The position numbers were made by a program, and so were the translations under genes. Under the pieces are notes generated by a model that saw only the letters and a list, made by a program, of their open reading frames with translations, was not told the origin of the DNA and ran no database searches. This document shows, one piece after another, positions 1 to 34,402 of a DNA stretch of 48,561 bases. Numbering within the stretch: position 1 is the first letter of the stretch; each line of letters opens with the position of its first letter. The DNA is from a virus: IMG/VR virus record IMGVR_UViG_3300038365_000082, positions 1-48,561 of that record. One strand, 5' to 3'.

Positions 1-53
1 TGCCGCGGAAATACTCCGGCAAGCGGGTCAAGATCGTGGTGCTGGAACCCTGA
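1..53 (+). CDS. 3' end of a DUF2080-like domain gene (partial, ...PRKYSGKRVKIVVLEP*)
   Basis: Identical to the last 53 nt of ORF 33656..34378. Confidence 0.8.
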   Translation, partial: PRKYSGKRVKIVVLEP

Positions 54-57
54 GACT

Positions 58-77
58 TCCCGGCAAATTTGCCGGGA
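58..77. terminator. Perfect 20-bp palindrome TCCCGGCAAATTTGCCGGGA (terminator or recombination boundary)
   Basis: Self-complementary, 4 nt after the stop of the early operon; second copy at 34383-34402. Function is inferred. Confidence 0.5.
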
Positions 78-120
78 TGTCTCCGTAAAAACTATATCCT
101 TTTTCGACGACCCCTCACGC

Positions 121-504
121 ATGGCTGAATGCAAATACATCTCCGACCGCGAAGCTAAATTCCTCGCGGCTGTCCTGGCGGCGCTGATCATCATCCCGGC
201 GCTCTGGATGGCTCGCGAGGTCCTGACCGCGCCGCAGACCATGATCCCCATCCTCATCGGCGTCCCGCTGATCGCCGCGATCATCTGGTACGAGTGGGGG
301 CGCACATCGCAGAACTGGGGGGCCTACGCACTGTTCCTCGCCGCAGCTGGAGCACTTCCGCTCGGGGCACTGATGTACGTCTTCGTCGGATGGATCCCCG
401 TCGCGCTCGGGATAAAGCCGATCATCGTCGGGGCGGCGTTCTGGACCTCCGCTGCACTCGCAATCCTCCGGCAGATTGTGATCCAGCGGCAGAAAAAGAG
501 TTAG
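121..504 (+). CDS. Membrane protein with about 4 TM segments (moron / superinfection-exclusion candidate)
   Basis: 127 aa with hydrophobic helices; AT-rich TATA-like stretch at about 85-103 upstream; oriented opposite to the structural genes. Confidence 0.75.
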   Translation: MAECKYISDREAKFLAAVLAALIIIPALWMAREVLTAPQTMIPILIGVPLIAAIIWYEWGRTSQNWGAYALFLAAAGALPLGALMYVFVGWIPVALGIKPIIVGAAFWTSAALAILRQIVIQRQKKS

Positions 505-1259
505 GGGAGTTTCATGATGTACGCCAAGGCGTAATACGGCGGCCGGTTCTCGTGCGCCTGCCCGCCGCCGGCGCTGCCGGTTGTCGCTGGATATGATCCG
601 TAGATGGCGCCGCCAGACATCGCAACCGTTCCTCCCTGTCCAGAAATTACGGTATAGGAGTGTGCATGCGTTGGCATCTCGTCAGTGGTCAGGGTATGGG
701 TGGCCTCGCCACCAGTTGCGCCGACCGCATACGAGGAGCCAGCGCCGACGACGAACCGGTCCCGGAGATCCGGAGTGCCATTTGCCCCGTCGCAGAGGGC
801 CCACCCCCAAGGTATGTTGGCGATCGCCCCCGACCACATGATGATCCCCCCGACGGGCGTACAGGATGCGATAGGCACGGTCGCGTCGATCACGTCGCCG
901 GTCGCGATCACCGACGCCCCGGCAGGCACCCGCACGATCGCGATCAGACAGGTATTCGCGGGCTGCGGCGGGCATTTCTGTTTCTCGGTCCCTTTCGTCG
1001 CCGCGAGCACCCCTGCGGCCGATATCGTGATCAGATCGTAGCGGTCGAACGCGCTGCCGGCGTCTAGCGTCACGGAGCCACCCCCATACCCTCGCCCCAC
1101 CTGTGCAATTTGGACCGCGCCGCTCGTCACTGAGACCACCCGGTTCGATCCGGTCGCGCTCGCGGTGCAGCCGGAGAGCACCCCCGTCCCCCGGAACGCT
1201 GCGACCATTGCGTTCCACTGCGGGGCGAACAGCCCCATCCCGTCCTCTATGGAAATCAT
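501..1259 (-). CDS. Tail fibre / baseplate protein with phage tail-collar domain
   Basis: Motif PVGGIIMWSG..IPWGWALCDGANGTPDLRDRFVVGAG...HENRPPYYALAYIMK. Confidence 0.85.
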   Translation of the reverse strand: MISIEDGMGLFAPQWNAMVAAFRGTGVLSGCTASATGSNRVVSVTSGAVQIAQVGRGYGGGSVTLDAGSAFDRYDLITISAAGVLAATKGTEKQKCPPQPANTCLIAIVRVPAGASVIATGDVIDATVPIASCTPVGGIIMWSGAIANIPWGWALCDGANGTPDLRDRFVVGAGSSYAVGATGGEATHTLTTDEMPTHAHSYTVISGQGGTVAMSGGAIYGSYPATTGSAGGGQAHENRPPYYALAYIMKLP

Positions 1260-1594
1260 GGATTTCTCACCCTGTACAGTACCTCGAATTCAACCTCGAT
1301 CGTCTCGTTTTTCTCCAGCTGGAGAAACGTTTTCCGGGAGAGAAGACGGTTATCGGCCGTTTTCACCCCGACCTCCGCGAGCAGGAGCCCGTTTGCGTCC
1401 CCTGCCGTGAGCCGGCCGCTCGCGACCACCTCCCCGGTGCTCCGAGTCGCCAGGCTGGCGGGTTTCGTGATCACCTGTGCCTGCAGCGCCGTGTCTCCTT
1501 CGTTCTCCGGTCGGGTGCCGGTCCCGATCACCACCGTTGACAGGAGCCCCTGCCAGAGGTCGCGCTGCGCGTTTCTGCCGATTGTTGTTATCAT
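1256..1594 (-). CDS. Tail / baseplate structural protein
   Basis: GTG..AL...E.G..T...LLSRK.F motif typical of tail-fibre-attachment proteins; ATGA coupling to the next gene. Confidence 0.65.
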   Translation of the reverse strand: MITTIGRNAQRDLWQGLLSTVVIGTGTRPENEGDTALQAQVITKPASLATRSTGEVVASGRLTAGDANGLLLAEVGVKTADNRLLSRKTFLQLEKNETIEVEFEVLYRVRNP

Positions 1595-2956
1595 CTAGAT
1601 CACCTGCACTCTGTCGCCCCGGCGGTCCCCGAGCAGGCCGCCGCCGACGTCCGGATGCCCGACGCCCCCGCCAGCCCCCGTGTCTCCGAACACGAACATG
1701 TCGTCCGGGATCGCCCGGGTGTAGACCCGGAGTTCGACGTCAGTCACGATCTCCTCGGTCAGGTCGACGATCTCGAGCAGCGCAGCGTCGCCGTCTGCCG
1801 CCCGGGCATCGATCCGGCTTACCTCGTCCGAGAGCTCGACCAGGACGTCGACGACGCCTCCTGCGTTCTCGGCGAGCTTCACTGTCGTCTCCCCGCTAGC
1901 CCACGCATACTCGATCTGCGCCACCCGGTAGGTGCCGTTGACCTGCTGATCCGGCACGACCACGGTGCAGACGTCGCCCGGGCGGATCCTGGTGCCGCCC
2001 CACGTCCGGATCGTCCCGGTCCGGATCACCTGCCGGTCGGCGAGGATCGCGGTAGCCTTCTGCCGGGCCTCGGCTTCGCTCGGGATCTCCGGGTAGGTCT
2101 TCACCACCTCGATCACGACCGCTCGGGGCGCCCCGAATTTCTCCTTGAGCGCGAGCTGTGCCGCCCGGTTCTGCACCGAGACCGCGCCGGTGGTCGGGGA
2201 GGTGCCCCAGTACACCGTTGCTTTGTTGATCTCGACCTGTCCGTCTTCCGAAAACCGCGCGTCGTAGTATTCCCCTTCGACGAAATCTCGCGGGCTCCGG
2301 TTCACCGCCCGGGGACGGAAGAAGAACTGCATCGAGTCATCCGCACCCCACTCTTCCCCGTCGCTGCCGTTCGCGAGTTCGGCGATCACCACGTCGAGAT
2401 ATTCCCCTTTCCACGTCGCCGAGATCGTCCGGTCGTAGGTGACGGAGACGAGCGCGGGATTCCACTTTAGCGGCGTCAGCGTCGTGATCAGGTCCTCGAG
2501 GATCGCGGAGACCGTCTGTGAGGAGTAGGTTTTGAAGACCGCCCGCCGCCGGATCCAGAAGTCATGAGCGAGGAGCTTCAGCGTCGTGGTGCCGGCGTCG
2601 GTCGTAACCTTCGACACGAACCCGCCCATCCGGAGCGCGAGCGGCGATCCTCGTTCCGAGACCCACAACTCTAGCGGCGTATCGCGGGGGTAGATCTGCT
2701 CGATCGTCGAGTCCGGGTCGTAGATCTTGACTTCGGCGGTGCGGCCAAACCGCGAGAACGCATCCTGCACGTAACAGTCGAGGATGCCGGGCACCCATGT
2801 GGCCGTCGTCGGCGCGTAGAGTTTCCAGACCGTCGCCCGCTCTGTCCGGGCGGGGAAGAGGGGGCGGACCCCGAAGAACTCCGCGAGCGGGGAAGAGGGT
2901 TGGAGATCGACGGTGAGAGGAACCGTCTCATCGAACCGGAACAATACTGGGGTCAC
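1595..2956 (-). CDS. Baseplate hub / tail tip protein
   Basis: Long ORF after Dit-like gene; hub-like pattern (TVSAILEDLI...YRVAQIEY); start reassigned to GTG 2956 by GTGA overlap. Confidence 0.75.
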   Translation of the reverse strand: MTPVLFRFDETVPLTVDLQPSSPLAEFFGVRPLFPARTERATVWKLYAPTTATWVPGILDCYVQDAFSRFGRTAEVKIYDPDSTIEQIYPRDTPLELWVSERGSPLALRMGGFVSKVTTDAGTTTLKLLAHDFWIRRRAVFKTYSSQTVSAILEDLITTLTPLKWNPALVSVTYDRTISATWKGEYLDVVIAELANGSDGEEWGADDSMQFFFRPRAVNRSPRDFVEGEYYDARFSEDGQVEINKATVYWGTSPTTGAVSVQNRAAQLALKEKFGAPRAVVIEVVKTYPEIPSEAEARQKATAILADRQVIRTGTIRTWGGTRIRPGDVCTVVVPDQQVNGTYRVAQIEYAWASGETTVKLAENAGGVVDVLVELSDEVSRIDARAADGDAALLEIVDLTEEIVTDVELRVYTRAIPDDMFVFGDTGAGGGVGHPDVGGGLLGDRRGDRVQVI

Positions 2957-3456
2957 TCGCTCTCCCCCGCCGACGTCTCGAACCCTGCGATGAGCCGCAG
3001 CGTCCATCCGACCCGGTCCTTTTTCGTCGATTTATTCTTCCTCAACTCATCGATCGCGACTTTCGGGAACACACAGCCGTCGACGGAGTATGACAGTTCT
3101 GCAGGCGTCGCTGCCGTATACCGATCGTCGCCGAGGACCAGGTCGAAGTTCTGCTCCTCCTGGAGGTTGAGGATCTCCAGCACCCGGAACTGGTCGGCCG
3201 CCGAGACTGTCGGCCGGCCGAAGAGCGTCTGCACGGCGGCTTTGTGGTCCGCAGGCATCTCGCTCGTCGGCACGAACTCGCCTTGCAGGGTGATCTCGTG
3301 CCGGCAGATCAGTTTGTTCTTCACGATGGTGCCCCGGCCGCCGGACCGGTCGCCGGTGAACAGGCTGTTCTTGAGCACGACGTTCTCCTCTGCGAGAGGG
3401 GCGAGATAGAGGCGGACATATCCGTTCACCCCAAGCGTGCAATAGGTGTACGTCAC
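2953..3456 (-). CDS. Distal tail-like protein
   Basis: Position between tape measure and hub; GTGA overlap with the tape measure stop. Confidence 0.6.
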   Translation of the reverse strand: MTYTYCTLGVNGYVRLYLAPLAEENVVLKNSLFTGDRSGGRGTIVKNKLICRHEITLQGEFVPTSEMPADHKAAVQTLFGRPTVSAADQFRVLEILNLQEEQNFDLVLGDDRYTAATPAELSYSVDGCVFPKVAIDELRKNKSTKKDRVGWTLRLIAGFETSAGESE

Positions 3457-4673
3457 CGCCCCTGCCTCCTGAGTTCGTCCTGCCACATCTGCCCGAACAA
3501 CTCCGCGAGTTTTCGCTCATCGAACCCGGTCGCGTCCGCTCCCGAGACGGAGACCGCGCCGCGCTCGATCGTGAGGTAGACATCTCCCCCGCGATCCTGC
3601 GTCGGCATCGGGACCGGCTGCTGATAGGTCTGCCCGATCCACGCGGTCCCGCCCGGCGGTGTCGGCTGCTCCCCGGACCCGAATATCCATTTGTCCATCT
3701 CGCCGATCAGGTCGGAGACGGCGCGGTTCGGCGGCAGCCCTTTGATGATCACGCCCTCCCGGAGCCCCTCTGTGAGCCCCCACTTCTCCCACCGGCCGAG
3801 GAGTTCCGATCCAGCGGAGTCGAGTGTCGCCTGCAGGCGTTCGATCTGGGGCATGAGGAGCCCGCTCAAGACGGGGATTTTCGAGACGATGCCTTCCATC
3901 CAGTTGAGCGCGAGCTGTGCGCCCCACAGTCCCGCGCTCGCCGCGACGAGTGAGAACCACTCGACGATGTTGTCTTTCAGGTTCCCGAGGATCGTGATCG
4001 AGTTCTGTACGAAGAGCCCGAACTGCGCCCCGGCGTCCTCGATTGCCTGGATGACACCGAGTTTCCAGAGCCCCCAGACCACGATCCCCCCAAGGACAAG
4101 CCCTGATACTCCGGCGACCGCCGTCCCGAGCGTAGTGAGCCCCCCCGCTGCGGTCGTGAGCGGGAGTTTTGCCAGGACCCCGGCCAGCCCGGCACCGCCG
4201 AGGAGCCCGTTCAGCGGCCCGAGCAGGAACGAGAGCCCGGCAACCGCCCCGGAGATCGCGAGGAGGCCGAGAGTCACCAGGAGCCCGTAGGCGAACACAT
4301 CCTTCAGCGGCTCAGGTAGCCTCTCCCACACATCCGTGAGTCGTCCTGCTACGCCCTCCAGGCCCTCGAACGCCGGTACCCACCGCTCGCCGATATCCAT
4401 CGCGAGCATGGAGAACTCCAGATATACGCCGTTGAGTGCGGCCTGGAGGCTAGGAGATGCCGCGACCACGGCCGCCAGCGCACCGGCTGCCGCGAGGCCG
4501 ATCGTCGTCAGGGCGGTTTTGTGCCGCTCCATCCACCGCTTTGTTTTCTGCTCGTTCTTCTCGGCGTTCTTCGCGGTCTTCGAGATCGCCTTATCAACGC
4601 GATCCTCGTCCCGGATCAAGCGGTCCGCGCCGGATGAGGTGTATACGACCGCGACCTCGCTGACGACTACCAT
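3453..4673 (-). CDS. Tape measure protein (short, 406 aa)
   Basis: Ala/Gly/Leu-rich with central hydrophobic segments; follows the tail chaperone. Confidence 0.8.
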   Translation of the reverse strand: MVVVSEVAVVYTSSGADRLIRDEDRVDKAISKTAKNAEKNEQKTKRWMERHKTALTTIGLAAAGALAAVVAASPSLQAALNGVYLEFSMLAMDIGERWVPAFEGLEGVAGRLTDVWERLPEPLKDVFAYGLLVTLGLLAISGAVAGLSFLLGPLNGLLGGAGLAGVLAKLPLTTAAGGLTTLGTAVAGVSGLVLGGIVVWGLWKLGVIQAIEDAGAQFGLFVQNSITILGNLKDNIVEWFSLVAASAGLWGAQLALNWMEGIVSKIPVLSGLLMPQIERLQATLDSAGSELLGRWEKWGLTEGLREGVIIKGLPPNRAVSDLIGEMDKWIFGSGEQPTPPGGTAWIGQTYQQPVPMPTQDRGGDVYLTIERGAVSVSGADATGFDERKLAELFGQMWQDELRRQGR

Positions 4674-4889
4674 CGCCGCCTCCCTTTCTTTTTAGCCTTG
4701 TCCTGTTCTTCCCTCACTCGTCTCGCCTCCCCTTCCAGGATTGCCAGGTGCGCCCGATACTCGCGGGCAGGCAGTACAGCGCGGGCGTCGAACGGACACC
4801 CGTACTTCGCCCAGAACGCCGCATCCTGCAGCACCCGGGCCTCCCACTCCTCATCAGCGACGACCGTGTCGCCATGCCCGTAGTCAGCG
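4667..4889 (-). CDS. Tail assembly chaperone T-segment (not in ORF track; reached by frameshift or from GTG 4834)
   Basis: Open frame FADYGHGDTVVADEEWEARVLQDAAFWAKYGCPFDARAVLPAREYRAHLAILEGEARRVREEQDKAKKKGRRRW* fills the gap between chaperone and tape measure. Confidence 0.6.
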
Positions 4890-5258
4890 AAACCCGATCC
4901 GGGTTTCCTCGTCGAGTTCCACGAACTCCTGCACCGCGTCCGCGAGCGCGTCCCGGATGTGGGCCGGGAGCAGGGCGATGTTCTCCTCCGTCGGGGCGAA
5001 CCCTTCCGGCCCGGAGACGACGCCGACCCGGATGTATTCGGTCTTCAGCGCCCGGAGTTCGTCTGCGGTGACAGTGTCGCCCCGCCGGCGCTTCCGCATC
5101 CGAACCGCCTTCGCCTCGATCTGGTCCCGCTCCAGCTGGGAGATCGCCCGGACGCGGAACCGGATCTCTCCGTCGCCTGCCGGGAACACGAGGTCTTTCG
5201 TCTCGCTCTGCAGCCGCTCGAACGTCGCGACCGCATCCTGCCAGGACAGATCAGCCAT
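4884..5258 (-). CDS. Tail assembly chaperone (gpG-like)
   Basis: 124 aa, lies between tail tube and tape measure genes. Confidence 0.7.
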   Translation of the reverse strand: MADLSWQDAVATFERLQSETKDLVFPAGDGEIRFRVRAISQLERDQIEAKAVRMRKRRRGDTVTADELRALKTEYIRVGVVSGPEGFAPTEENIALLPAHIRDALADAVQEFVELDEETRIGFR

Positions 5259-5262
5259 GCGA

Positions 5263-6210
5263 TCACACCCCCGCCGGGACGCGGATCTCGATGCTCGAAT
5301 TCAGCGGACCGACCGAGAGCACGGACTCGAGCGACCCCTTCTCGCCGATCGGGATCGGGGCGTCGAGGATCGTACAGTCCTCGAACGTGACGATCACGGC
5401 ATCCGTTGCGGTCGCCACATCAGACCCCGCGCGGAGGAACGGGATCACGATATCGACAGGGTCACCGTCTGCCCACGCCGCCGCAAACAGCGAGTTGTCG
5501 GTCGGCAGGAACCCGATCTTGACATCGTACTTTCCTTCGGCCTCGCCCTCGGCGACATCGTAGGCCCCCCGGGCGCCGTCAGCACCGTAGGGCTCGAGCC
5601 CGTTGTTCCACGTTGCGTCGAGCGAGGTGATCGACGCGAGCGGGTCGCCGCCGACCGTCGCCCGCGCCCCGATCATCCAGAACCGGTACGGCTGGAGCGC
5701 GGGGACCGTCACCGCCGGGAACGACGACACGGATGTTTCGACCTCGCGGGATGCCGCCACAAAGTCCATCGTGGCCACCAGAGCCTCCCCCCTCTTCGCC
5801 GAGAGCGACAGGTCTGCTTTGCACCCGACGAAGTACTCGATAAACGCGGCGTCCTGCTGCGTGTGCTGCACCGTGATCGTCGGGAGCGTGTCGAGTTCGG
5901 TAAACTTCTTCCCGGTGTATCCGGTCCCAGTGACTGTCTCAGATTTTCCGAGCGCGCACTGGAACGGTGCGTTGTCATCGAGGACCTCGAACGGGATCGA
6001 GAACGAGAGATCGTACTCGTCCGCGCTGTAGAGGAACGGCCCCCGACGGTGCCCGACCGACCCCTTCGGCGTCTTCGGGTTCGCCGCCGGCCAGTCGATC
6101 GCGCTCGTGATGAGGCCGAACGGGGTATTCGCAGTCGCTGCTCGCGTGTAGGGCTCCGTTTCCGCGCCCCACGATACTGTGCCTTTGCTTGCCTGTAGTT
6201 TCCTGACCAT
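5263..6210 (-). CDS. Major tail (tube) protein
   Basis: About 315 aa beta-rich; syntenic; start reassigned to ATG 6210 (MVRKLQASKGTVSWG). Confidence 0.8.
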   Translation of the reverse strand: MVRKLQASKGTVSWGAETEPYTRAATANTPFGLITSAIDWPAANPKTPKGSVGHRRGPFLYSADEYDLSFSIPFEVLDDNAPFQCALGKSETVTGTGYTGKKFTELDTLPTITVQHTQQDAAFIEYFVGCKADLSLSAKRGEALVATMDFVAASREVETSVSSFPAVTVPALQPYRFWMIGARATVGGDPLASITSLDATWNNGLEPYGADGARGAYDVAEGEAEGKYDVKIGFLPTDNSLFAAAWADGDPVDIVIPFLRAGSDVATATDAVIVTFEDCTILDAPIPIGEKGSLESVLSVGPLNSSIEIRVPAGV

Positions 6211-6212
6211 TT

Positions 6213-6692
6213 TCACGCCCCTCCAGGGGCAGTATATACGGTTCCCTTGACAACGATTTTCCAGCGCCGGATCTGCTCGTTTGCATCCCAGGTCATCGGG
6301 ATGCCCGGGGAGATCTGCGGGTCGGTAAACCCGGCCGCGTTGAGTGCGTCGACATGTGCCTCGACCCATGCTCGGACCTCGTCGCGGATGCGGAACATCT
6401 GCGTTGACGATATGGCATGGATCTCGATGTCGACGGCATACGTATGCTGCCAGAGGTCGGCACGGCTGTCGGGTCGGTCGCCAACGTCGGACCCCTCACC
6501 TACAACGATATGTGGGTAGAGCAGTCCTCGATCAGGGAACTCCGTCAGCACCATCGGTGCTGCACCGTTTCGCCTGGCGGACGACGGATCGAAGATGTCG
6601 CCGGCAGCGACAGCAGCCCGCAGGCCGTCCCGGAACAAGTCCCGGATGATCGCGGTGCTCAGGCTACGAGAAGAGATTTCGGTCGTCGTCAT
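6213..6692 (-). CDS. Tail terminator / completion protein
   Basis: Synteny; YPHIVV...Y.VDIEIHA pattern. Confidence 0.65.
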   Translation of the reverse strand: MTTTEISSRSLSTAIIRDLFRDGLRAAVAAGDIFDPSSARRNGAAPMVLTEFPDRGLLYPHIVVGEGSDVGDRPDSRADLWQHTYAVDIEIHAISSTQMFRIRDEVRAWVEAHVDALNAAGFTDPQISPGIPMTWDANEQIRRWKIVVKGTVYTAPGGA

Positions 6693-6746
6693 GGGAACCC
6701 TCATTTGAGTTCATTTCAGTTCTCCCGCGCATTTGCGGCTGTGTTC

Positions 6747-7256
6747 TTATTGCGTTTCGAGTTCGCGGAACCGGGCCTGGACGTTGCGCTCCAGGGTCGG
6801 CGCGACTATGTCGGCAGCGAGTTGAGCCGGGGCAAACCCCTTGAGGCCATGCACGGCGATGTGCTGCCGGAGCGCGAAGATCATACTGTCCCAGGTCTCG
6901 CCCTCTCGCGGCACGAGCCCAGCCTCCCGCGCCCATCTCTCGATGGGTTCCGGCGGGGGCATCTTTGATCCTGGAGCCCGGCCATACTCGGCGATCACAT
7001 GCTGGATCGTCTCTCCCTTCACCACATACTCATCTGCTCCCGGGAGTTCCGGCCACACGGTGGTCCGGGCGATCGCTTCCCCGGTCCCGACATACGGCCG
7101 GCCATGCGCCCCGTCAGCACCGAGCCCCTTCTCCAGGTTCTCCTGATACTGCTGGCGGGTGCGCTCGGCGGCTTTCCAGAGTTCTTCCGAGACGATCTGG
7201 CGGTAGTCTGGGAGACCTTTGTACGAGACCTTGATCTCGTAGGACGTCCGGCTCAC
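6747..7256 (-). CDS. Neck protein, HK97 gp10-like
   Basis: EYGRAPG...PP.EPIERW...I...G.K.F motif. Confidence 0.65.
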   Translation of the reverse strand: MSRTSYEIKVSYKGLPDYRQIVSEELWKAAERTRQQYQENLEKGLGADGAHGRPYVGTGEAIARTTVWPELPGADEYVVKGETIQHVIAEYGRAPGSKMPPPEPIERWAREAGLVPREGETWDSMIFALRQHIAVHGLKGFAPAQLAADIVAPTLERNVQARFRELETQ

Positions 7257-7864
7257 CCGACGACCTCCTGCAGGTAAAGGGTATTTTTGGTCACGCCGGT
7301 GAACGGGTGCTTATCCCGCTTCGCGTCAGCGACACGATAAACCTGATACTCCTCCCGATCGAGGCCGTTGGGCGCGACGCTGCCTGCTCCGAATACGACC
7401 GTATACCCGACGCCGCCGGGGATCTCCGGGCGGGCGATCTGGATCGTCCATGTGGCCCCCGACCCTGAGACCCCGATCACCGCAGCGTCCGGCACCGTGA
7501 GTAGGAGATCCCCCATACCCTCGCGGTCCGGCTGCACCTTGATCCACTCGCTGAGCGTCGCCCGCCTCGTCGCAGTGATACCGCGCCCGGCGAGGTCGCG
7601 TGACTCCTTTTCCGACGGCGACGAGACGAGTGCTTTGACGAGCCGCAGGTCCCACGAGGACGCGGCAGGGTCGAATGAATCATAGTCATCGAACGCCGCC
7701 ACAAGGCACCGGATGAGCACGGCCGTCTCCCCGACCCCGGCGACGGCTTGCTCCACGGGGCCGGGAGTAACCGCCGGATCGGGCAGCACCGCCGAGCCAA
7801 CGTCGAAGTACTCCGCGAGCGGGAGGTTGGTGTCGAAATGGAGGGAGATGTCGGGGAGCGGCAT
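7253..7864 (-). CDS. Head closure-like structural protein
   Basis: Synteny between adaptor and neck genes; C-terminal YQVYRV pattern. Confidence 0.55.
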   Translation of the reverse strand: MPLPDISLHFDTNLPLAEYFDVGSAVLPDPAVTPGPVEQAVAGVGETAVLIRCLVAAFDDYDSFDPAASSWDLRLVKALVSSPSEKESRDLAGRGITATRRATLSEWIKVQPDREGMGDLLLTVPDAAVIGVSGSGATWTIQIARPEIPGGVGYTVVFGAGSVAPNGLDREEYQVYRVADAKRDKHPFTGVTKNTLYLQEVVG

Positions 7865-7865
7865 C

Positions 7866-8665: not shown

Positions 8666-8668
8666 GGA

Positions 8669-9318: not shown

Positions 9319-9329
9319 GAGGTATCACC

Positions 9330-9677: not shown

Positions 9678-9688
9678 GTGCGATCACC

Positions 9689-24180: not shown

Positions 24181-24192
24181 TGATAATCCATC

Positions 24193-27035: not shown

Positions 27036-27442
27036 CACCTCACCACCTGCGCCTCGACGCCGTCCGCCGGGACCGTGTGCATCCCCAGGAGCACGTCGCG
27101 CAGCGCCTCGCCGGTCGGCGGCTCGATACCGTCGCGCCGTGCCAGGTCGTCGAGCGCTCGCCACGCATAGTACTCCTCATGCAGCGGCCCCGGGAACACG
27201 ATCCCGCCCGGCACGATCCGGATATTCCGCGCCGTCGTCAGCGGATAATACTCCGTCCGGAACGACCACGGCGATCGATATGGGCGCCCGCTCCAGCCGT
27301 GGAACGATACCAAATCCCCGATGCGGTACTTCGCCCCGGCCCGGATCGTCTGTCGGATCGTGCCGTCCCGGACGCCCGCGATCTTCGGCTCGTAGGTCAG
27401 CGGGATATTCCACTTCCGAGGCTTGCGCCAGGGGTCAGTCAC
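27032..27442 (-). CDS. ASCH/PUA-like domain protein
   Basis: I..G...QTIR......GD...F..W.G.P...A..DG motif. Confidence 0.7.
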   Translation of the reverse strand: MTDPWRKPRKWNIPLTYEPKIAGVRDGTIRQTIRAGAKYRIGDLVSFHGWSGRPYRSPWSFRTEYYPLTTARNIRIVPGGIVFPGPLHEEYYAWRALDDLARRDGIEPPTGEALRDVLLGMHTVPADGVEAQVVRW

Positions 27443-27484
27443 GCGACCACCGCCCGCGCCGTGCCTCGCCTACAGAGATGAATG

Positions 27485-27871
27485 TCACCGGTACCGCCTC
27501 CTGAACGCCGCGGCGGGCGGGATATCCCGCGGTGTCGCGGGCGGGTCGAAGACCTCTAGATTGAGGTGGATCGCCCAATCGCGCTCAAGCCGCGCGCCCT
27601 TGCTCTGCTCCCATCCAGGTAGCAGCAGCACCGCTGCGCGCGCCCGTGGCAGGAGCCGGAGGATCGCGAGGTCGCCGTCGATCCAGTCCTCGTTCGGGAC
27701 CTCCGGGCAGTCGTTCTCAAAGTGCGCCGTGTTGAGGTGCGGCGTGAACGGGAACCACCCCGCCTTGACCGCCGCCACCGCATACTTCCGGGCGACCGCG
27801 ATGTTCTCCGCGACCGTCCGACCATTCCCGGCCGAGTAGGGGCCGCTGATGTAGAGGATCGGGCGGGTCAC
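27485..27871 (-). CDS. Second DUF4406/DUF1937-like protein
   Basis: LYISGPY...PHLN...W..GDL...LPGWEQSKGARLE. Confidence 0.8.
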   Translation of the reverse strand: MTRPILYISGPYSAGNGRTVAENIAVARKYAVAAVKAGWFPFTPHLNTAHFENDCPEVPNEDWIDGDLAILRLLPRARAAVLLLPGWEQSKGARLERDWAIHLNLEVFDPPATPRDIPPAAAFRRRYR

Positions 27872-28068
27872 GCGACCGCCTCCAGGACTTCATCGGGCGG
27901 CCACCAGATCGCCATGACTTGGAGCGAGAGACGGACCCCTCTCGCTCGCAGGAGATCCCCTCGCTGCAGCGCCGCACTGAGCTCCTGCTGCAGCGTCCGG
28001 AACCGGGCTCGAGCTTCCGGCGGGCAGATCCCCAGGCCCTTGGGGGCGGCGATGTCCCCGGGCATCAT
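27868..28068 (-). CDS. Hypothetical protein
   Basis: 66 aa, overlap-coupled in the operon. Confidence 0.55.
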   Translation of the reverse strand: MMPGDIAAPKGLGICPPEARARFRTLQQELSAALQRGDLLRARGVRLSLQVMAIWWPPDEVLEAVA

Positions 28069-28463
28069 ACCCCCTCCAGTGCAGTCTGTCGCGAGGTTGC
28101 GTCGCTCAACTGTTCCGCGTCGGTGACGATCTCGTATATCCCGACGGTAGAGTGCCGCTCCTGGCTGTTGATGACGTCGACGACATCCTCAGTAGGCATC
28201 ACGTGGATCCGGCCCCCCTCGCGGAACGTCAGCCCGCGACCTCTCCGGGTCCGCTGGATCTCGCTCGAGATCTGAACATCCAGAAACCTCCCGGCCGTCC
28301 CGGGATATCTGCGGCAGATGGGGGCGCTGCTGCGCTTGCGGTAGACGAACCGCCGCAAGAGGTCGAGTCGCACCGACAGCAGATCGTCGCCGATGCGCAT
28401 CAGGAGCACGTCGTCCGGGTCTCGTCCCGTGAGCCGGGCCTCGCCGGCGTGACGCAGCGTCAT
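28065..28463 (-). CDS. Hypothetical protein
   Basis: 132 aa, overlap-coupled. Confidence 0.65.
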   Translation of the reverse strand: MTLRHAGEARLTGRDPDDVLLMRIGDDLLSVRLDLLRRFVYRKRSSAPICRRYPGTAGRFLDVQISSEIQRTRRGRGLTFREGGRIHVMPTEDVVDVINSQERHSTVGIYEIVTDAEQLSDATSRQTALEGV

Positions 28464-28630
28464 CCGAGCACCTCCACATCAGAGGTCGACATCCAGACCA
28501 TGCTCCTCGTCCCGGTAATGTGGACGAGGTACTGCTCTGTCGCAGGGTAGTATCGGAGCACCTCTCCGATCTCTCCCGGCGCACCCGGCACCGAGACCCG
28601 CACCCGGGCCCCCTCCATGTTGTAGGTCAT
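28460..28630 (-). CDS. 56-aa SH3/KOW-like protein, not in ORF track
   Basis: MTYNMEGARVRVSVPGAPGEIGEVLRYYPATEQYLVHITGTRSMVWMSTSDVEVLG; ATGA overlaps at both ends. Confidence 0.7.
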   Translation of the reverse strand: MTYNMEGARVRVSVPGAPGEIGEVLRYYPATEQYLVHITGTRSMVWMSTSDVEVLG

Positions 28631-29538
28631 GGCGATCCCCTCCCGGCGCCGACCAGCACCAGCGACTCCGGCGGGAGCCAGATCCGATCGAGGGAGTTGT
28701 CCAGGGCGACGAGCATCTCCGGCGAGTCGGGGTCGTACTGCACCACCGTCCCTATCTGGCCTGCAAACTCCGGCAGGGATCTGATCTGGACTCGCGCCCC
28801 CGTCCAGGGGTAGGGGGGGGCGCCTGTGCTCCGGGGCTCGTCGTACTGGGTGACCGGGACGGTGTCGCCGGCGAAATCCGGGGCGGGAGTGGCCCCCCGC
28901 TGGGGCCTGATCTTTTGGTAGTATCGGCTCTTGATCGCTGCATCAGTGCGGACGGAGCCAGGGTACGCGGCCCGGTAGAGTGCGACAGCCTCCGTCGGAG
29001 TGGTGGCCCCGCACATAGCCCTCTCCTGCTCCGGGGTCCACCCCCGAGCATCCAGACGCATCTCACCCCCCCGGGGTGATGCCTCGTAGACTGGCTCCTC
29101 CTCCGGGACCGGTTCCGGGAACTCGGGTTCCGGCTCTACTACGTAGGTGTGGAGCCGCCCCGGGTCGGCGATCGCTGGCGTCTCCGTCTCGTAGACCGTA
29201 TCTTGGGCGGCCATATCTGCGTCCTGCTCCTCCTGCTCGGCCTCGCAGGCGTCCCGCATTCGGGCGACCTCGTGCATCGCGGAGCAGGCATCCTTGACCG
29301 GGCAGAGGATCGCAGGGTCGTCGAGGTGCGGGCACCCGTCCTTGCAGGGATAAGGGTAGGCGCAGAGCGGTGGATCCTCGCGATAGTCCGGCCCGTCGCC
29401 GTCCTCGGGGGCAGACCCATCCGGGTCGTAATGCACACACAGGCCGCTCGTCTGCGGCCGGATGATGGTCGGGTGCCGCTCGGTCGAGAGCCTGAACAGA
29501 GCCGCGACCTCGTCGACATCAGTGATGACGATGATCAT
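28627..29538 (-). CDS. Multidomain hypothetical protein (Cys cluster, acidic linker, C-terminal SH3/KOW-like domain)
   Basis: Long ORF; start ATG 29538 overlaps the upstream stop. Confidence 0.65.
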   Translation of the reverse strand: MIIVITDVDEVAALFRLSTERHPTIIRPQTSGLCVHYDPDGSAPEDGDGPDYREDPPLCAYPYPCKDGCPHLDDPAILCPVKDACSAMHEVARMRDACEAEQEEQDADMAAQDTVYETETPAIADPGRLHTYVVEPEPEFPEPVPEEEPVYEASPRGGEMRLDARGWTPEQERAMCGATTPTEAVALYRAAYPGSVRTDAAIKSRYYQKIRPQRGATPAPDFAGDTVPVTQYDEPRSTGAPPYPWTGARVQIRSLPEFAGQIGTVVQYDPDSPEMLVALDNSLDRIWLPPESLVLVGAGRGSP

Positions 29539-30004
29539 GCAGATCCCCCCGGAGAATCCATGCACTTTTTACAGAGCGTCTTGCTCATAAACAACTGCGA
29601 GAGTTTCGCCTGTGCCTTGGTCGTTTCCGCACCGCACCGCTCGCAGATCACGATATCGTACGGGTCAGAGGCCTCCGATTTGGGCGGTGCGGCGGGCGGC
29701 TTGATACACGTCCTGACCGCTGCCGCCGCCTGCTCTGCAGGAGTGGGCGCGGGCATCCGCTCGGGGAGCGGGGAGACCCGATCGAGGGTCACGGACGGAG
29801 AGGTCTTCGCGGGCTCCACGGGCGACGGGATCGAGGTCGGGGTCCCGACGTCCGGTATTTGAGGAGTTTGCGGCCGAATATCACGACCGCATCGTCGATA
29901 TCCCGCTCGGCCTCGACGTGCCCGGCAATGGAAAACGTGACGGTGCTCCCGTTTTCCAACGGAAGCGTCGCTCCGATGATGACCTCTTTCGGGGCGAAGG
30001 TCAT
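29535..30004 (-). pseudogene. Apparently frameshifted gene (N-terminus MTFAPKEV..., C-terminal Zn finger CERC...CKKC)
   Basis: The coupled start at 30004 and the coupled stop at 29535 are in different frames; the switch is near 29860-29885. Confidence 0.5.
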
Positions 30005-30672
30005 GCCTGCACCTCCTTTTGGGCGTTCCACCACTCGCCAAAGTGCTCGACGCACAGCACCCGGTCGGTGTGCGGCTTGGTCTTCTCGCGGATCTCCTCC
30101 GGCACCGGGACCCCGCAGACCTCGCAGCATATCGGGGTCGCCTGGGGCACCTCGCCGACGTAGCGCGGGGCGCGGTCGCCAGTGTCGATCTCTTCGGGAG
30201 AGTAGAGCCCGGAGATCGAGAACGCCCTACGGAGCGCGTGCGCCTCGGCGACCTTCTGAATCATCGTCCGGGGCTTGTCCCGCCAGAGGTTCTTGCCGGT
30301 GGAGTACTCGGAGGCATAGACTTCGACCTCGAACGGGTGGCTCATGTCCTTGCGGTGGACTCTGCACCATCCGATGAGTTCGTTATCCTCGATGCGCGAT
30401 CCCGACTGGATGCCGTCGAACTGCCCCGAGCGGTGCGCGATCGCGAGATATCCGTCGCGGCCGCAGAAGATTTGCGCGGGACTGTCGCCATACTTGACGA
30501 GCCATATCTGCCGCGCGAACGGGTCGAGCTGGTACTTCCGGGCGAGTTCGATCATCACGCCGAACTCGTTGTCATTCGCCCCTTTCGCGAACATGTCGCG
30601 GATGAGCCGGAGTTTCTCGCGGTCGTAGGTTGCCGGGGTCGCGGGAGCGGTGGTCGCAGGTAGGTCTGACAT
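30001..30672 (-). CDS. bet: Phage single-strand annealing recombinase, Bet/RecT family
   Basis: LDPFARQIW, GRDGY..IA.RSGQFDG, W...P.TMI.KVAE..ALRRAF..SGLY..EE. Confidence 0.92.
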   Translation of the reverse strand: MSDLPATTAPATPATYDREKLRLIRDMFAKGANDNEFGVMIELARKYQLDPFARQIWLVKYGDSPAQIFCGRDGYLAIAHRSGQFDGIQSGSRIEDNELIGWCRVHRKDMSHPFEVEVYASEYSTGKNLWRDKPRTMIQKVAEAHALRRAFSISGLYSPEEIDTGDRAPRYVGEVPQATPICCEVCGVPVPEEIREKTKPHTDRVLCVEHFGEWWNAQKEVQA

Positions 30673-31046
30673 CAGTCCACCTCCGGCGCATACGCGCTTG
30701 ATAGGTCGATCGGCGCAACGGATGTGAACCGGTCGCCAAGTGCATCCATCAGGATCAGGAGCGTCTTCCCGGGCTGCTCATCGCCGAAACGGACGAGCAC
30801 CACTTTCTCGGTGCCGATCCGCTCCGCGAGGGCACATGCCTCCTTGAGGCGGTCGAGTGAGTATCCCCCGATGATCTCTGGGGCGTCTGGCGAGAGCGTC
30901 CCGACTACGTGCCCGGCGCCGACGGTGTTGCCGGCATTGGTGACCACTGACACAAATTTGGCGTCGTCGATAACCCACGGCGCCCCACCACACCCGTGCA
31001 GATCGGCGGGGAGCAGGGCGTCGAGGTAACTAAAATCCTGCCGCAT
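30672..31046 (-). CDS. Hypothetical protein (weak sliding-clamp-like C-terminus)
   Basis: YSLDRLKEA...SVAPI pattern. Confidence 0.6.
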   Translation of the reverse strand: MRQDFSYLDALLPADLHGCGGAPWVIDDAKFVSVVTNAGNTVGAGHVVGTLSPDAPEIIGGYSLDRLKEACALAERIGTEKVVLVRFGDEQPGKTLLILMDALGDRFTSVAPIDLSSAYAPEVD

Positions 31047-31340
31047 CTACTCCACCTCCACAGGGAGTACCGCGATGCATCCCATCTGCCGGTCGCCGAA
31101 CCGTGTCTCTCTGTCAAGACCGATCAGGAGCAGGTGCGTTTTCCCGTCGCGCTCGATGCTGCCGATCTCCACATCATCGTAGCCGCATGTCCGGAGCGCC
31201 TCGGCCGCCCGGATGACAGTCTCGATCCGATACTCGCCGACGTGGTGCGTCTGGTCGCCGTCCTCGAACACGGCGACGTAGAACGCGCCTGCGGGAGTCT
31301 CGGAGTCTGCGAAGGTGCCGCAGGGGAGTGCGGGGATCAT
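31047..31340 (-). CDS. Hypothetical protein, probable paralogue of 30672..31046
   Basis: GEYRIETVIRAAE...LLLIG...IAVLPV pattern. Confidence 0.6.
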   Translation of the reverse strand: MIPALPCGTFADSETPAGAFYVAVFEDGDQTHHVGEYRIETVIRAAEALRTCGYDDVEIGSIERDGKTHLLLIGLDRETRFGDRQMGCIAVLPVEVE

Positions 31341-31525
31341 GGAGATTCCTCCATCTTCCGCTGCGCGAACGACCGCACCATGAACGCATTGTCGATCCGG
31401 CGCATGAAGTCCTCCGGGTTGGCAAAATCCCCGTAGACCTTCACCGCGCCACCCTTGCCGGGAGTGCCGATCTCGACGCTGTCCTTCTGCGCGTCGATGT
31501 GGCGGTGGATGATCTCCTCGGTCAT
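31337..31525 (-). CDS. Small hypothetical protein (62 aa)
   Basis: MTEEIIHRHIDAQKDSVEIGTPGKGGAVKVYGDF...; coupled start. Confidence 0.7.
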   Translation of the reverse strand: MTEEIIHRHIDAQKDSVEIGTPGKGGAVKVYGDFANPEDFMRRIDNAFMVRSFAQRKMEESP

Positions 31526-31860
31526 CAGCACCGCCCCCGATCGGCCTGCATCTCCTCGAGCACGCTCACCGGGAGGTCCTCGACGTGTCGGACCCGGTGG
31601 ACCCGGCACCGCTCGCTCAGGGCCGCGGCTCGCTCCTCGCGCAGGGCTTCGGCGCAGGCGGGGCAAACATCAATGCTCTGTGTCTCGGCGCCGCAGGAGC
31701 GGCAGAGCCGCACCCGCCCGTGCAGGAGATCGTCGTTCGCCGGCGCGTTTTCGAGCGTGCGAACAAATATATTCTCAGAGGACGATACTCTTCTGTCGCC
31801 CGCGCCCTCTTGGGGGTTAGCGCGTCCGGATTGCGGGGCGGCACTCAAAATCTCACTCAT
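31525..31860 (-). CDS. Zn-finger hypothetical protein
   Basis: CRSC...CPAC; AAGGAG upstream. Confidence 0.6.
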   Translation of the reverse strand: MSEILSAAPQSGRANPQEGAGDRRVSSSENIFVRTLENAPANDDLLHGRVRLCRSCGAETQSIDVCPACAEALREERAAALSERCRVHRVRHVEDLPVSVLEEMQADRGRC

Positions 31861-32005
31861 TTTCTCTCTCCTTGATTCTGATCAGACCCTCGGATTTCAG
31901 GTAATCGCCGATTTTCAGCGGGAATCCGAGGGTGCGTTCGTATTCCGATTCAACAGCCCTGATAGCCTCCGGGCTGACTTCAAGCGGTTCTGGCTGGCAA
32001 CTCAT
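31853..32005 (-). CDS. 50-aa hypothetical protein, not in ORF track
   Basis: MSCQPEPLEVSPEAIRAVESEYERTLGFPLKIGDYLKSEGLIRIKERENE fills the gap and overlaps both neighbours. Confidence 0.5.
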   Translation of the reverse strand: MSCQPEPLEVSPEAIRAVESEYERTLGFPLKIGDYLKSEGLIRIKERENE

Positions 32006-32156
32006 AGCCAATCTCCTTCGCGAGTACTCTCCGGACCATGTCCGTGCGGCTCTCGTAGTCCCGCAATTTCCATGCTCTGTCGAGCACCTTTACCATATCA
32101 GGAGGCAGATAGACGTTCACCATCTTGAGCCCTCCCGACTGATTTTCCTTGTTCAC
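31980..32156 (-). CDS. Ribbon-helix-helix (CopG/Arc-like) transcriptional regulator
   Basis: MVNVYLPPDMVKVLDRAWKLRDYESRTDMVRRVL; first gene of the leftward operon; start GTG 32156 or ATG 32123. Confidence 0.75.
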   Translation of the reverse strand: MNKENQSGGLKMVNVYLPPDMVKVLDRAWKLRDYESRTDMVRRVLAKEIGYELPARTA

Positions 32157-32256
32157 GTATTCACCATAATACAATATGACAGTAGCATATATAAGCATTG
32201 CTATTCTTAGTATTACGTGCATTATAGATATTAGTAATATTACGGTGTTTTATGGG

Positions 32257-32287
32257 GCCGCACCCCCGCGGGTGCGTGGATTGAAAT
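32257..32287 (+). CRISPR. Solitary CRISPR repeat unit, type I-C-like
   Basis: GCCGCACCCCCGCGGGTGCGTGGATTGAAAT: GCACCC/GGGTGC stem plus GTGGATTGAAA(T/C) tail as in I-C repeats; single copy in the window. Confidence 0.85.
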
Positions 32288-32307
32288 CATACTCTATTGA
32301 CTCAGGA

Positions 32308-32335
32308 CAATTCCCCGGCCTCCGGGGATGAACCG
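32308..32335 (+). CRISPR. Solitary CRISPR repeat unit, type I-E-like
   Basis: CAATTCCCCGGCCTCCGGGGATGAACCG: TTCCCC...GGGGATGAACCG as in I-E repeats; 7-bp stem TCCCCGG/CCGGGGA. Confidence 0.78.
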
Positions 32336-32353
32336 ACACCTATATATAGGTGT
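32336..32353. promoter_or_regulatory. Perfect 18-bp palindrome ACACCTATATATAGGTGT around a TATA tract (operator candidate)
   Basis: Self-complementary, directly after the I-E-like repeat and about 30 nt upstream of ORF 32383. Confidence 0.6.
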
Positions 32354-32382
32354 ATATCTAATAGATATATTGTAGGATGTGA

Positions 32383-32862
32383 ATGAGAATGGAGAGAAAC
32401 GAGAAGGGAGCGTATCTTCTGAACCCGGCCGAGGTCGCCGGGGAGCACGTCGCAATATACACTCGGTACAACGGCGGGTGGATCAAGTCTGTTGAGAGCC
32501 TCGACAAGAGCCAGACGAGCGGCTACTCCCTGGTCGGGAAGTTCCTAAAATCCGGCCTGCAGTGGATGGGGCCGGGCGTCTACCTGGACTGCAGCAAAGG
32601 GGGCAGCCGGAAAAATCAGAGGAATGTCTATACAGTATTCGCCCTCCGCGAGGACGGGACGGTGATCGCCCTCAACGACGACACGATCGTCGAGGAGGGG
32701 CGCGGCGGGGATTGGGCGGTCCGGCTCTGGCCGGTCGTCGAGCGCGCGTTCGCAGCGGTCGGGGGGAGCGACGAGCGTGCCGCCCTCCTGGCCAGGAAAG
32801 CAGAGATTGAGAACGAACTCGCGGAGATCGAGGAGAAACTCCGCGCGTTGGAGAGGTCATAG
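32383..32862 (+). CDS. Early hypothetical protein with C-terminal coiled coil
   Basis: 159 aa, first gene of the rightward operon. Confidence 0.75.
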   Translation: MRMERNEKGAYLLNPAEVAGEHVAIYTRYNGGWIKSVESLDKSQTSGYSLVGKFLKSGLQWMGPGVYLDCSKGGSRKNQRNVYTVFALREDGTVIALNDDTIVEEGRGGDWAVRLWPVVERAFAAVGGSDERAALLARKAEIENELAEIEEKLRALERS

Positions 32863-32876
32863 GAGAGGAACGAAAC

Positions 32877-33374
32877 ATGGCTCGATACGATGGAGATGAG
32901 CTCACCCCGCAGGTGAGAACTATAGACGGCGAAGTGTACAGGCAATTTCATCTGACCCTGCTGGCGCTTGACGTCGTGATGCCCCCCAAGAAAACCGAAA
33001 CAGCGTTTAAAAACGCAGGGATTAGATTCCGTGGGCAGAATGGCGCGTACTGGGTGCACATCCAGGATTGGTCGGCGGCCTTCGAGGCCATCGACCAGGC
33101 CATCGACCAAGCCCGTCGGGTAGTTCGGGAGCCAACCCCAGGGGAGAGCGATCTCGCCGAGTCTCTCCTCCGCTCAGGGGTATCCCCCCGGCAGATCGCC
33201 GACCTCCGACAGGCTGACGATCTCCGGTGCGCCCTCTGCGGTCGCGTCCTCGAGATCGTCGACGAGGACGAGGAAACGACCTGGATCGCCTGCCCCATCT
33301 GCAGCACCAGCTCGCCGGACGCGGAGGCGCACTCCTCCGCGCGGCTGGACCACCCGATAGACGCGGCGCTATAG
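32877..33374 (+). CDS. Early hypothetical protein with Zn ribbon
   Basis: CALCG...CPIC; AGGAGAGG upstream. Confidence 0.7.
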   Translation: MARYDGDELTPQVRTIDGEVYRQFHLTLLALDVVMPPKKTETAFKNAGIRFRGQNGAYWVHIQDWSAAFEAIDQAIDQARRVVREPTPGESDLAESLLRSGVSPRQIADLRQADDLRCALCGRVLEIVDEDEETTWIACPICSTSSPDAEAHSSARLDHPIDAAL

Positions 33375-33404
33375 GAGATGGTGGGACTGAGGGAGGGAAC
33401 TGAG

Positions 33405-33659
33405 ATGGCCACATCCACCGACAGCCCGGCCAAGGGCCAGGACATCTACGGGGGCGGGGATTGGTTCGTTGTCGGCCCGGAGTATCTCTGGTACATCCAA
33501 AACAACGGCATGGATGGAGATAACTGGGGCTACAACAATGTCCGGACCGGAGGGGCAGGAGCGATCGGCTACCGGGTCCCCGCATCATCCCCGATGACGG
33601 CGGAACTGCGCAGCCTGGTGAGCGAGATCGCCGCACTAATCGGAGGCGAGGGAGAATGA
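33405..33659 (+). CDS. Early small hypothetical protein
   Basis: DWFVVGPEYLWYIQNNGMDGDNW...RTGGAGAIGYRVP; GGGAGG upstream. Confidence 0.7.
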   Translation: MATSTDSPAKGQDIYGGGDWFVVGPEYLWYIQNNGMDGDNWGYNNVRTGGAGAIGYRVPASSPMTAELRSLVSEIAALIGGEGE

Positions 33660-34378
33660 CTACCTTCGCCCTCTCCCTCGACTACGACTGCCCCGTGGCG
33701 CTCTTGGAGCCCGACGGCGATGGACAGCCCCGCCGAATCTGCCTCGTCATCGACTGGGCGAGCGAGACCATCAGCGCCGAGACCCGGGCGCACGACGACA
33801 ACACCCGATCTGAATACCGTTGGCGCGGTATGGAGGATGCCTACCAACTCCCGCCGCTCGTGGACGCGACGCAGCTCCGCGAGTGGGTCAATGAGGAGGT
33901 GCTCCCGCGCGCCGCACCGCTCGCCGAGACGTATGAGACGGTCTGGGAGGACGTCGAGCAGTACGGCCGGTTCCCCGGCCACGAGCGGGAGAAGGAGGAT
34001 TTCGACGCCTGGATGGGGTCACACGAGCCGCCGCTCCACGACGGGGGCCTGTGGCGGGTCGAGGATTGGCTCTCTGGGGGAGTCAAGGAGATCGGCCCCG
34101 AGACCACGGATGCCGCGATCGAGTCGCTCGCCGACATGATCGTCGACGAGGCTGCGGCTGAAAACGTGGTGGTTGTCGCGGGGCGCGAGGCCGTCCGGGC
34201 CTACCTCCTCGACTATCGACAGGAGCTCCGCGACGCGATCCCGGAGCCGGACTGCTACCAGATCAGAGGATACGCTGTGCTGGAGGGCACCTCTAAAAAT
34301 TTCGGGGGCACGGCGCACGTCACAGTGCCGCGGAAATACTCCGGCAAGCGGGTCAAGATCGTGGTGCTGGAACCCTGA
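33656..34378 (+). CDS. Acidic hypothetical protein fused to a C-terminal DUF2080-like domain
   Basis: C-terminus FGGTAHVTVPRKYSGKRVKIVVLE matches the archaeal DUF2080 pattern. Confidence 0.75.
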   Translation: MTTFALSLDYDCPVALLEPDGDGQPRRICLVIDWASETISAETRAHDDNTRSEYRWRGMEDAYQLPPLVDATQLREWVNEEVLPRAAPLAETYETVWEDVEQYGRFPGHEREKEDFDAWMGSHEPPLHDGGLWRVEDWLSGGVKEIGPETTDAAIESLADMIVDEAAAENVVVVAGREAVRAYLLDYRQELRDAIPEPDCYQIRGYAVLEGTSKNFGGTAHVTVPRKYSGKRVKIVVLEP

Positions 34379-34402
34379 GACTTCCCGGCAAATTTGCCGG
34401 GA
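34326..34402. repeat. Direct repeat copy 2 (junction between virus A and virus B)
   Basis: Exact match to 1-77. Confidence 0.97.

Follow-up and report, generated by a model that had tools for sequence, protein, structure and literature searches.

The window analysed here (48,561 bp) is an entire IMG/VR record classed as 'linear', so that its base 1 is a contig end, and it is recorded as a single virus with a CheckV completeness of 100%. Its first 77 bases recur far inside it, and the genes beyond the second copy encode a second kind of virion. We asked whether this double genome, which should not be accepted as it stands, is one molecule or a join made during assembly. A sequence-only reading had left the choice between a true cointegrate or tandem of two viruses and an assembly chimera. 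The placement of the repeat at base 1 and the separate existence of relatives of each part favour the chimera and disfavour the cointegrate.

The repeat and the three modules of the window

Repeat comparison bore out the exact recurrence that had been noticed: bases 1–77 and 34,326–34,402 (repeat V) are identical over 77 nt, and the match stretches to 80 nt with a single mismatch at position 78 (T vs C). V and a 136-nt portal-end repeat are the only long direct repeats in the window. Copy 1 (1..77, plus strand), which starts at contig base 1, comprises the last 50 nt and stop codon of a gene ending in DUF2080, then a palindromic hairpin (–24.3 kcal/mol, z –6.3). Copy 2 (34,326..34,402, plus strand) holds the 3′ end of g47 and the hairpin (–30.2 kcal/mol), and lies between the convergent genes g47 and g48. 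Chance was ruled out as the origin of V, being impossible for an exact repeat of 77 nt, and so was a true long terminal repeat, because copy 2 is internal. The copy of bases 1–77 is found at 34,326 and not at the contig end (48,485–48,561), where a direct terminal repeat or a circular genome would have it. An exact 52-mer of V occurs in just one other contig across IMG/VR, and a 34-mer was found in one metagenome contig.

The first virion module (A-type; 78..22,395, minus strand), annotated with Pfam and PHROGs, consists of g01, fibre, tail, tube, connectors, capsid protein, protease, an adhesin slot, a portal with an intein, TerL and two small genes. The first gene beyond V in this arrangement is g01 (121..504, plus strand). 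Other landmarks are the tail fibre (501–1,259), the tail tube (5,263–6,369), the head–tail adaptor (8,072–8,665), the major capsid protein (9,689–10,864), the S78 protease (10,874–11,836), the portal with its LAGLIDADG insert (16,173–19,721) and TerL (20,073..21,602, minus strand; Terminase_6N plus Terminase_6C). When the module was compared with 50,697 phage records, no meaningful match was obtained, the sole match being 58 nt of a Burkholderia phage fibre gene. A Methanoculleus sp. MAG contig carries a gene with 89% identity to the TerL of the module. Several further TerL matches lie in non-methanogen MAGs (Bacteroidales, Patescibacteria and others) and are short viral contigs; as host evidence these were rejected and taken as binning noise.

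Between joint U (~22,395; boundary aligned), where g28, the last early gene, has its 3′ end, and the second copy of V lies an early/replication module resembling that of Methanoculleus virus Blf4 (22,396..34,325, minus strand). It encodes a DUF4406 protein, a PDDEXK nuclease (23,178–23,603), a D5-type helicase with HNH (24,193–27,009), RecT (30,001–30,672) and small genes, and carries a plus-strand block, g44–g47. The last 31 of the 240 residues of g47 (33,656..34,378, plus strand) match DUF2080 (PF09853, E = 2.7e-5), and its 3′ end lies inside V. Pfam and PHROGs searches returned nothing for g44–g46, g01, g48, g06 and most small early genes. The full set of virion and replication genes that had been claimed between the V copies was thus recovered as TerL, portal, capsid, protease, tail, helicase and RecT.

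Beyond the second copy, the matches to Sipho_Gp37-like, Dit, PhageMin_Tail and Phage_capsid_4 confirmed that a different virion module begins. This module (B-type, Blf4-like; 34,403..48,561, minus strand) is truncated and runs from g48 through tail tip, Dit, tape measure and connectors to the capsid protein, with a Sipho_Gp37-like protein in the module. The first gene beyond V in this arrangement, g48 (34,406..34,750, minus strand), shares 86% identity with the Blf4 protein encoded at 23,678–24,022. The tape measure (41,030..43,927, minus strand) matches PhageMin_Tail (E = 3.9e-47), its Blf4 homologue being annotated as a TP901-family tape measure. The major capsid protein (47,024..48,208, minus strand) matches Phage_capsid_4 (E = 3e-40) and, weakly, Mu gpT. 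The B part has no protease or scaffold-side genes, portal, TerL or methylase of its own. Outside V, no DNA or protein similarity was detected between the two parts of the window.

Blf4 and relatives carrying each arrangement

Blf4 (MZ171369; Pungoviridae, Flagovirus) came from a biogas plant and is a siphovirus that infects M. bourgensis lytically (PMC8540584). Its genome is circular and 37,078 bp long. Window 22,377–48,471 matches Blf4 and closed Blf4-like genomes (33–42 kb) gene for gene in the same order; 28 window genes in this interval match Blf4 in colinear order, in agreement with Pungoviridae gene order and hallmarks, and the early module is colinear with Blf4 from 37,078 down to 24,230. 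Protein identities to Blf4 range from 32 to 92% (C-terminal half of the helicase 92%, g48 86%, capsid protein 77%, tape measure 54%), and GC content, genome size class and the lack of an integrase are alike. In contrast, Blf4 has no homologue of the first 22.4 kb virion module of the window, three Blf4-type genes (TerL, the portal-like gene and the methylase) are missing from the window, and the window block g44–g47 is inverted relative to Blf4, whose genes all run in one direction. Genus practice in the ICTV is set at ~70% whole-genome nucleotide identity. Genus-level identity to Blf4 was not reached, since megablast gave 77% over just 36% of the B part and the A-type module was unmatched.

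The second virus had been called unrelated; on the contrary, the early module is usually paired with the B module, both in Blf4 and in the closed genomes. The proposal of a shared early module was right and reaches further than had been thought, in that 22,377–48,471 follows the canonical Blf4 order and the odd part is the A module at 78–22,395.

Three closed IMG/VR genomes carry the early module with a B-type module: G001 (UViG_3300038321_000136, 36,681 bp, with terminal repeats), G004 (3300038318_000271, 42.4 kb) and G005 (3300029825_000030, 33.5 kb). Unlike the window, each forms a single circle that carries only one virion module, and none holds A-type DNA except for an adhesin cassette in G004. 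The B part is colinear with G001 (14,591–28,854) and 86–96% identical over all 14.2 kb, the capsid proteins being 97% identical, and the early module is likewise colinear with G001, in which the helicase region differs and g47 is kept only as a 34-codon stand-alone version. G001 also has what the window lacks, namely a Blf4-type TerL, a portal-like gene, two head genes and a methylase. By tblastn, neither Blf4 nor G001 gave a match for the window genes at 121–22,390.

Relatives of the A-type module are G002, G003 and contigs L105–L116, one of which (L105) crosses U. Among these independent contigs the module is again bounded by U and V and adjoins an early module of Blf4 type. G002, a 34,056-bp provirus that matches a Methanoculleus MAG contig at 99.98% identity, is colinear with the window from 29,749 down to 121. 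In G003 the order is TerL, then g01, V and g47; a g01 homologue also ends G002. A-type relatives carry closely similar early genes beside an A-type TerL, with 82–93% identity over 23,255–29,749 in L117.

The two sides of the join thus exist separately, as B-type G001, G004 and G005 and as A-type G002 and G003, and each junction occurs alone elsewhere: V is followed by g01 in G003, and by g48 in G001, G004 and the ENA contig L014 (97% identity over 33,673–34,787). In metagenome 3300029825, A-type and B-type viruses are separate contigs, and the A-type contig ends inside V.

Origin of the head-to-tail join

These comparisons point, very probably, to an assembler path that went round the genome of a 34-kb methanogen virus and then entered part of another virus in the same sample. 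The sample would hold at least two Methanoculleus head–tail viruses, which we infer to be separate molecules, with Blf4-type early modules and non-homologous virion modules, both virion modules being placed between U and V. V would then be a de Bruijn graph node from which two exits lead, one to g01 (A-type) and one to g48 (B-type). The path would start at V, circle the 34,325-bp A-type genome, return to V, leave through the g48 exit into the B module and stop after 14.2 kb. A path through such a node predicts a repeat of exactly k nucleotides, with k presumably 77, starting at contig base 1, and the repeat found is exact, 77 nt long and starts at base 1 of the whole contig. The standard k values of SPAdes include 77. 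A closed related contig, G001, has an end overlap of the same kind (99 nt). Such k-length exact repeats at a contig end are familiar from contigs called circular or 'DTR'; the window differs in that copy 2 is internal, as if the path had closed the circle and then gone along another branch. On these sequence features, together with Blf4 colinearity, separate A and B genomes, the missing B packaging genes and the lack of a recombinase or host DNA, an assembly join is the most likely explanation, and the IMG/VR record most likely consists of one virus and 40% of a second. The early-module copy in the contig may be that of the A-type virus, that of the B-type virus or near-identical in both.

A 77-nt repeat is usually resolved by paired-end assemblers, which speaks against a simple passage through V; either the two viruses share more than one insert length upstream of V or the join is a plain mis-join.

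A tandem integrated provirus, with two proviruses side by side in the host chromosome, was also considered. Six-frame HMM searches detected no Phage_integrase (PF00589) or Resolvase (PF00239) anywhere in the window, so the earlier statement that it lacks an integrase holds. No host genes or att-like flanks were found at either contig end, the contig starting in V and ending in B-type head genes. Blf4 is lytic, and its paper mentions no integrase (PMC8540584). The A-type relative G002, classed as a provirus, begins with a 407-aa tyrosine integrase adjoining the V/g01 position, in the slot held in the window by the genes at 32,383–34,378, which is the point in favour of the tandem. With neither a recombinase nor host flanks in the window, this reading is largely refuted and its probability is close to nil.

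Alternatively, two co-infecting viruses could have recombined at the early module or V, for example via RecT, or been joined in replication concatemers, so that some real molecules would carry A module, early module and B module in the order seen here. A common host is probable from the same adhesin cassettes and the same type of early module, RecT and the PDDEXK nuclease are encoded, and on evolutionary time scales V and U have clearly served as recombination joints. However, the repeat is as long as a standard k and its first copy opens the contig at base 1, the B module ends without its packaging genes, no closed relative has two virion modules, and a molecule of at least 48.6 kb would be larger than every relative (33–42 kb). 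We consider such a cointegrate very unlikely. More doubtful still is the idea that hetero-concatemers really form in co-infected Methanoculleus, through RecT-driven joining at the early module or V, as an intermediate that swaps 22-kb virion modules and adhesin cassettes between architectures.

In Logan contigs of the best-matching run, X1, which may not be the source sample, word depths were 27.6–27.9 for the A module, 19.1–21.8 for the helicase region, 31.1 for g45–g47 and 31.6–32.6 for the B module. These unequal values, from a run that is possibly not the source, fit neither a model of two circles with an identical early module nor one of a short shared stretch only. Among the X1 contig pieces listed, which are contigs and not reads and possibly come from another sample, none bridges V.

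The true genome could instead be Blf4-like (early plus B module), the A module coming from another virus with a diverged early module and the 34,325-bp circle being chimeric at U and V. This would agree with the canonical Blf4 arrangement of 22.4–48.6 kb, with the X1 depth of g45–g47, which is near that of the B module (~32) and not that of the A module (27.7), with the sole X1 contigs over 22,479–22,521, which differ from the window, and with L014 and G004, in which an A-like g47 adjoins g48. Against it, contig depths are weak evidence, the more so as X1 is perhaps not the source sample, and A-type relatives carry similar early genes beside TerL (L117). Because these relatives pair similar early genes with an A-type TerL, the A circle is taken as a natural arrangement, and a chimeric circle appears unlikely.

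Exchange of virion modules

Under the preferred assembly join, the size of the record is inflated, and gene-sharing networks or inferences of host range that used it would be distorted. The part that looks real is mosaicism of the kind ordinary among phages: entire virion modules, and adhesin cassettes too, are exchanged at fixed joints. Few methanogen viruses are available, and here a Blf4-type replication module appears to be paired naturally with two non-homologous virion modules at two sharp joints. These well-defined recombination joints could be tested in the Blf4/M. bourgensis system; virion-module swapping is not described in the Blf4 paper (PMC8540584). Mosaic tailed archaeal viruses are the subject of a review (Krupovic et al., 2010) that is cited in PMC9796341.

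The pattern resembles tailed-phage mosaicism in general, in which the replication module is conserved and the morphogenesis modules joined to it are alternative, non-homologous ones, swapped at gene boundaries. In lambdoid phages, for example lambda and P22, early regions are shared and virion modules differ. The present case differs from these in its methanogen host and in the precision, to within a few bases, with which the joints can be located: one is the g28 3′ end, the other the DUF2080 3′ end together with the hairpin. The g01 homologue of G003 adjoins V and g47, as g48 adjoins V in G001, G004 and L014, and the same adhesin cassettes occur in both virion types.

Gene content of the contig and its internal repeat

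Three parts make up the window (48,561 bp, the complete record, IMG/VR class linear). Part A (78 to ~22,395) is a full virion module that encodes TerL, a portal with a LAGLIDADG insert, an S78 protease, a capsid protein, a head-tail adaptor, a tail tube and a collar-type fibre. It is followed by the early module (~22,396 to 34,325), which comprises DUF4406 proteins, a PDDEXK nuclease, a D5-type helicase with an HNH domain, RecT and small genes, including a plus-strand block of four genes that ends with g47. Part B (34,403-48,561), a siphovirus tail and head module, carries g48, a Sipho_Gp37-like protein, Dit, a PhageMin_Tail tape measure and a Phage_capsid_4 capsid protein. Six-frame HMM searches detected neither a tyrosine integrase nor a serine recombinase anywhere in the window; together with the module annotation, they bore out the gene content listed in the sequence-only reading, including its lack of an integrase. 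The D5-type helicase (24193-27009, 938 aa) matches the primase/helicase of Methanoculleus virus Blf4 (92%) over its C-terminal 483 aa only; its N-terminal half holds an HNH_3 domain, and a related genome, G001, has a different gene at that place.

Self-comparison of the window confirmed the claimed exact recurrence of bases 1-77 at 34326-34402; with one mismatch allowed, this repeat (V) reaches 80 nt. Outside V, no DNA or protein similarity was found between the stretches before and after 34402. V contains the 3' end (final 50 nt plus stop codon) of g47 (33656-34378, plus strand), which has a DUF2080 match at its C-terminus, and a palindromic hairpin, for which the folding energy is -24 kcal/mol in one of its two contexts and -30 kcal/mol in the other. 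In several contigs with a B-type (Blf4-like) virion module, V is replaced beside g48 by an 84-nt element ~74% identical to window 23888-23971; this element lies just after the g48 homologue in L199, L202, L204 and L205.

Two virion modules at one position

Blf4, a lytic siphovirus that infects M. bourgensis, has a circular assembly of 37 kb; its paper (PMC8540584) mentions no integrase. Part B is 77% identical to Blf4 at the DNA level. All Blf4 protein matches fell within 22377-48471, colinear with Blf4, and protein-level comparison gave none for the genes between 121 and 22390. Similarly, in G001 (IMG/VR UViG_3300038321_000136; 36,681 bp, 99-nt end overlap) positions 8-14,670 show patchy homology to window 22,438-34,402, and all of window 34,326-48,561 is 86-96% identical to G001 14,591-28,854. 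G001 then continues (28,872-35,780) with Blf4-type head genes, a portal-like gene, TerL and a methylase, which the window lacks. Judged by this colinearity with Blf4 and G001, window 22.4-48.6 kb appears to be a normal but truncated Blf4-like genome, and the unusual part is the first virion module. The second module had been described as unrelated, a view that does not hold: part B is the early module's usual partner in these genomes.

The A-type arrangement (part A next to the early module) was found separately. Provirus-class G002 (UViG_3300029775_000395; 34,056 bp) is colinear with the window from 29,749 down to 121 and matches, at 99.98% identity, a contig from the bin of a Methanoculleus sp. 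MAG. In G003 (UViG_3300006482_000006) the order is TerL, the tail genes, g01, V and g47, at 85-90% identity, and U, the second joint, is spanned by an A-type contig (L105). The gene after V is g48 in G001, G004 (42,384 bp, terminal repeats) and L014, an ENA fermentation-metagenome contig 97% identical over window 33,673-34,787. Each of the closed genomes (G001, G004 and G005, 33-42 kb) has a single virion module and, except for the adhesin cassette of G004, no A-type DNA. In metagenome 3300029825, A-type and B-type sequences lie on separate contigs, and the end of the A-type contig falls inside V. Alignment placed U at ~22,395, at the end of the last early gene and the start of the first A-type gene. 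With U there and V at the other side, the two non-homologous 22-kb virion modules share one slot. The part A module had no match in the phage collection and occurs commonly in metagenomes from digesters and landfills.

Origin of the contig

The contig is very probably a de Bruijn assembly path joining the A-type circle to the B-type module; its copy of the early module may come from the A-type virus, the B-type virus or both. A path that starts at node V, circles a loop and exits V by another edge would leave an exact repeat, k long, from the first contig base; 77 is a standard k among SPAdes defaults. Of the alternatives offered by the sequence-only reading, the assembly chimera is favoured over the true cointegrate or tandem, on the exact k-length repeat at base 1 and on part B, which breaks off without its packaging genes. 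No relative matches a molecule of at least 48.6 kb that has two tails and a pair of capsid genes. As RecT is encoded and the joints are shared, the join could in principle be a real recombination intermediate or hetero-concatemer, but this is very unlikely because the k-length repeat sits at base 1. A tandem provirus can to all intents be dismissed, since neither a recombinase nor host DNA is present. It is also unlikely, though less so than the intermediate, that the 34,325-bp circle is a chimera in its own right, the early module here being that of the B-type virus.

Logan contigs served as read-level data, the best-matching run being X1, which may not be the source sample. Word depths of exact X1 contigs were 27.6-27.9 in the A module, 19.1-21.8 in the helicase region, 31.1 in g45-g47 and 31.6-32.6 in the B module. 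Nearly half of the aligned X1 pieces (53/113) were <99% identical, a sign that this sample contains several mosaic variants. The head-to-tail join itself is very probably not biological; the pattern beneath it is modular mosaicism of tailed viruses, of a known kind, here in Methanoculleus viruses and with unusually sharp joints.

Mobile cassettes, the g44-g47 slot and candidate spacers

The portal gene (16173-19721) contains a LAGLIDADG-bearing, intein-like insert of ~1,058 nt, shared with related contigs L117 and L109 and absent from L107, L108, L111 and L116; the alignments of these four leave out precisely window 17641-18698. The portal 3' end is duplicated as 136-nt direct repeats of 94% identity (14143-14278 and 16173-16308), between which lies a 2-kb lower-GC cassette with a Phage_tail_APC domain gene (14264-14851) and a fibre-like gene (14854-16200, phrog_4492); L117 has one repeat copy and no cassette. 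Adhesin-like cassettes (window 11937-14170 and 38028-39785) move between A-type and B-type virions, as compared among L097-L100, L108, L109, G004 and L014. In A-type relatives, the position between portal and protease, filled by g19/g18 in the window, holds g54/g53 homologues; g54/g53 of the window lie in its B-type tail module, and B-type G004 and L014 carry g18/g19-like genes in theirs (90-96% identical in G004).

The plus-strand block g44-g47 (32358-34264) is a variable slot. It is wholly or partly inverted in L199, L202, L205, G001 and one contig of X13 (a run of 2.8 Mb from a single named organism), and missing from L201, L203 and L210; provirus G002 has a 407-aa tyrosine integrase and an Arc-like gene there. 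The AT-rich promoter region ahead of g44 contains CRISPR-repeat-like units at 32257-32335, a stretch conserved in G003 and G004, and the X13 match breaks inside it, at 32266, just upstream of the inverted block.

X1 contigs matching window 22541-22577, ~34544 and ~39901 run on into CRISPR-repeat-like sequence ending ...GGATTGAA(AC). These matches look like host spacers, which would target the early module as well as the B module.
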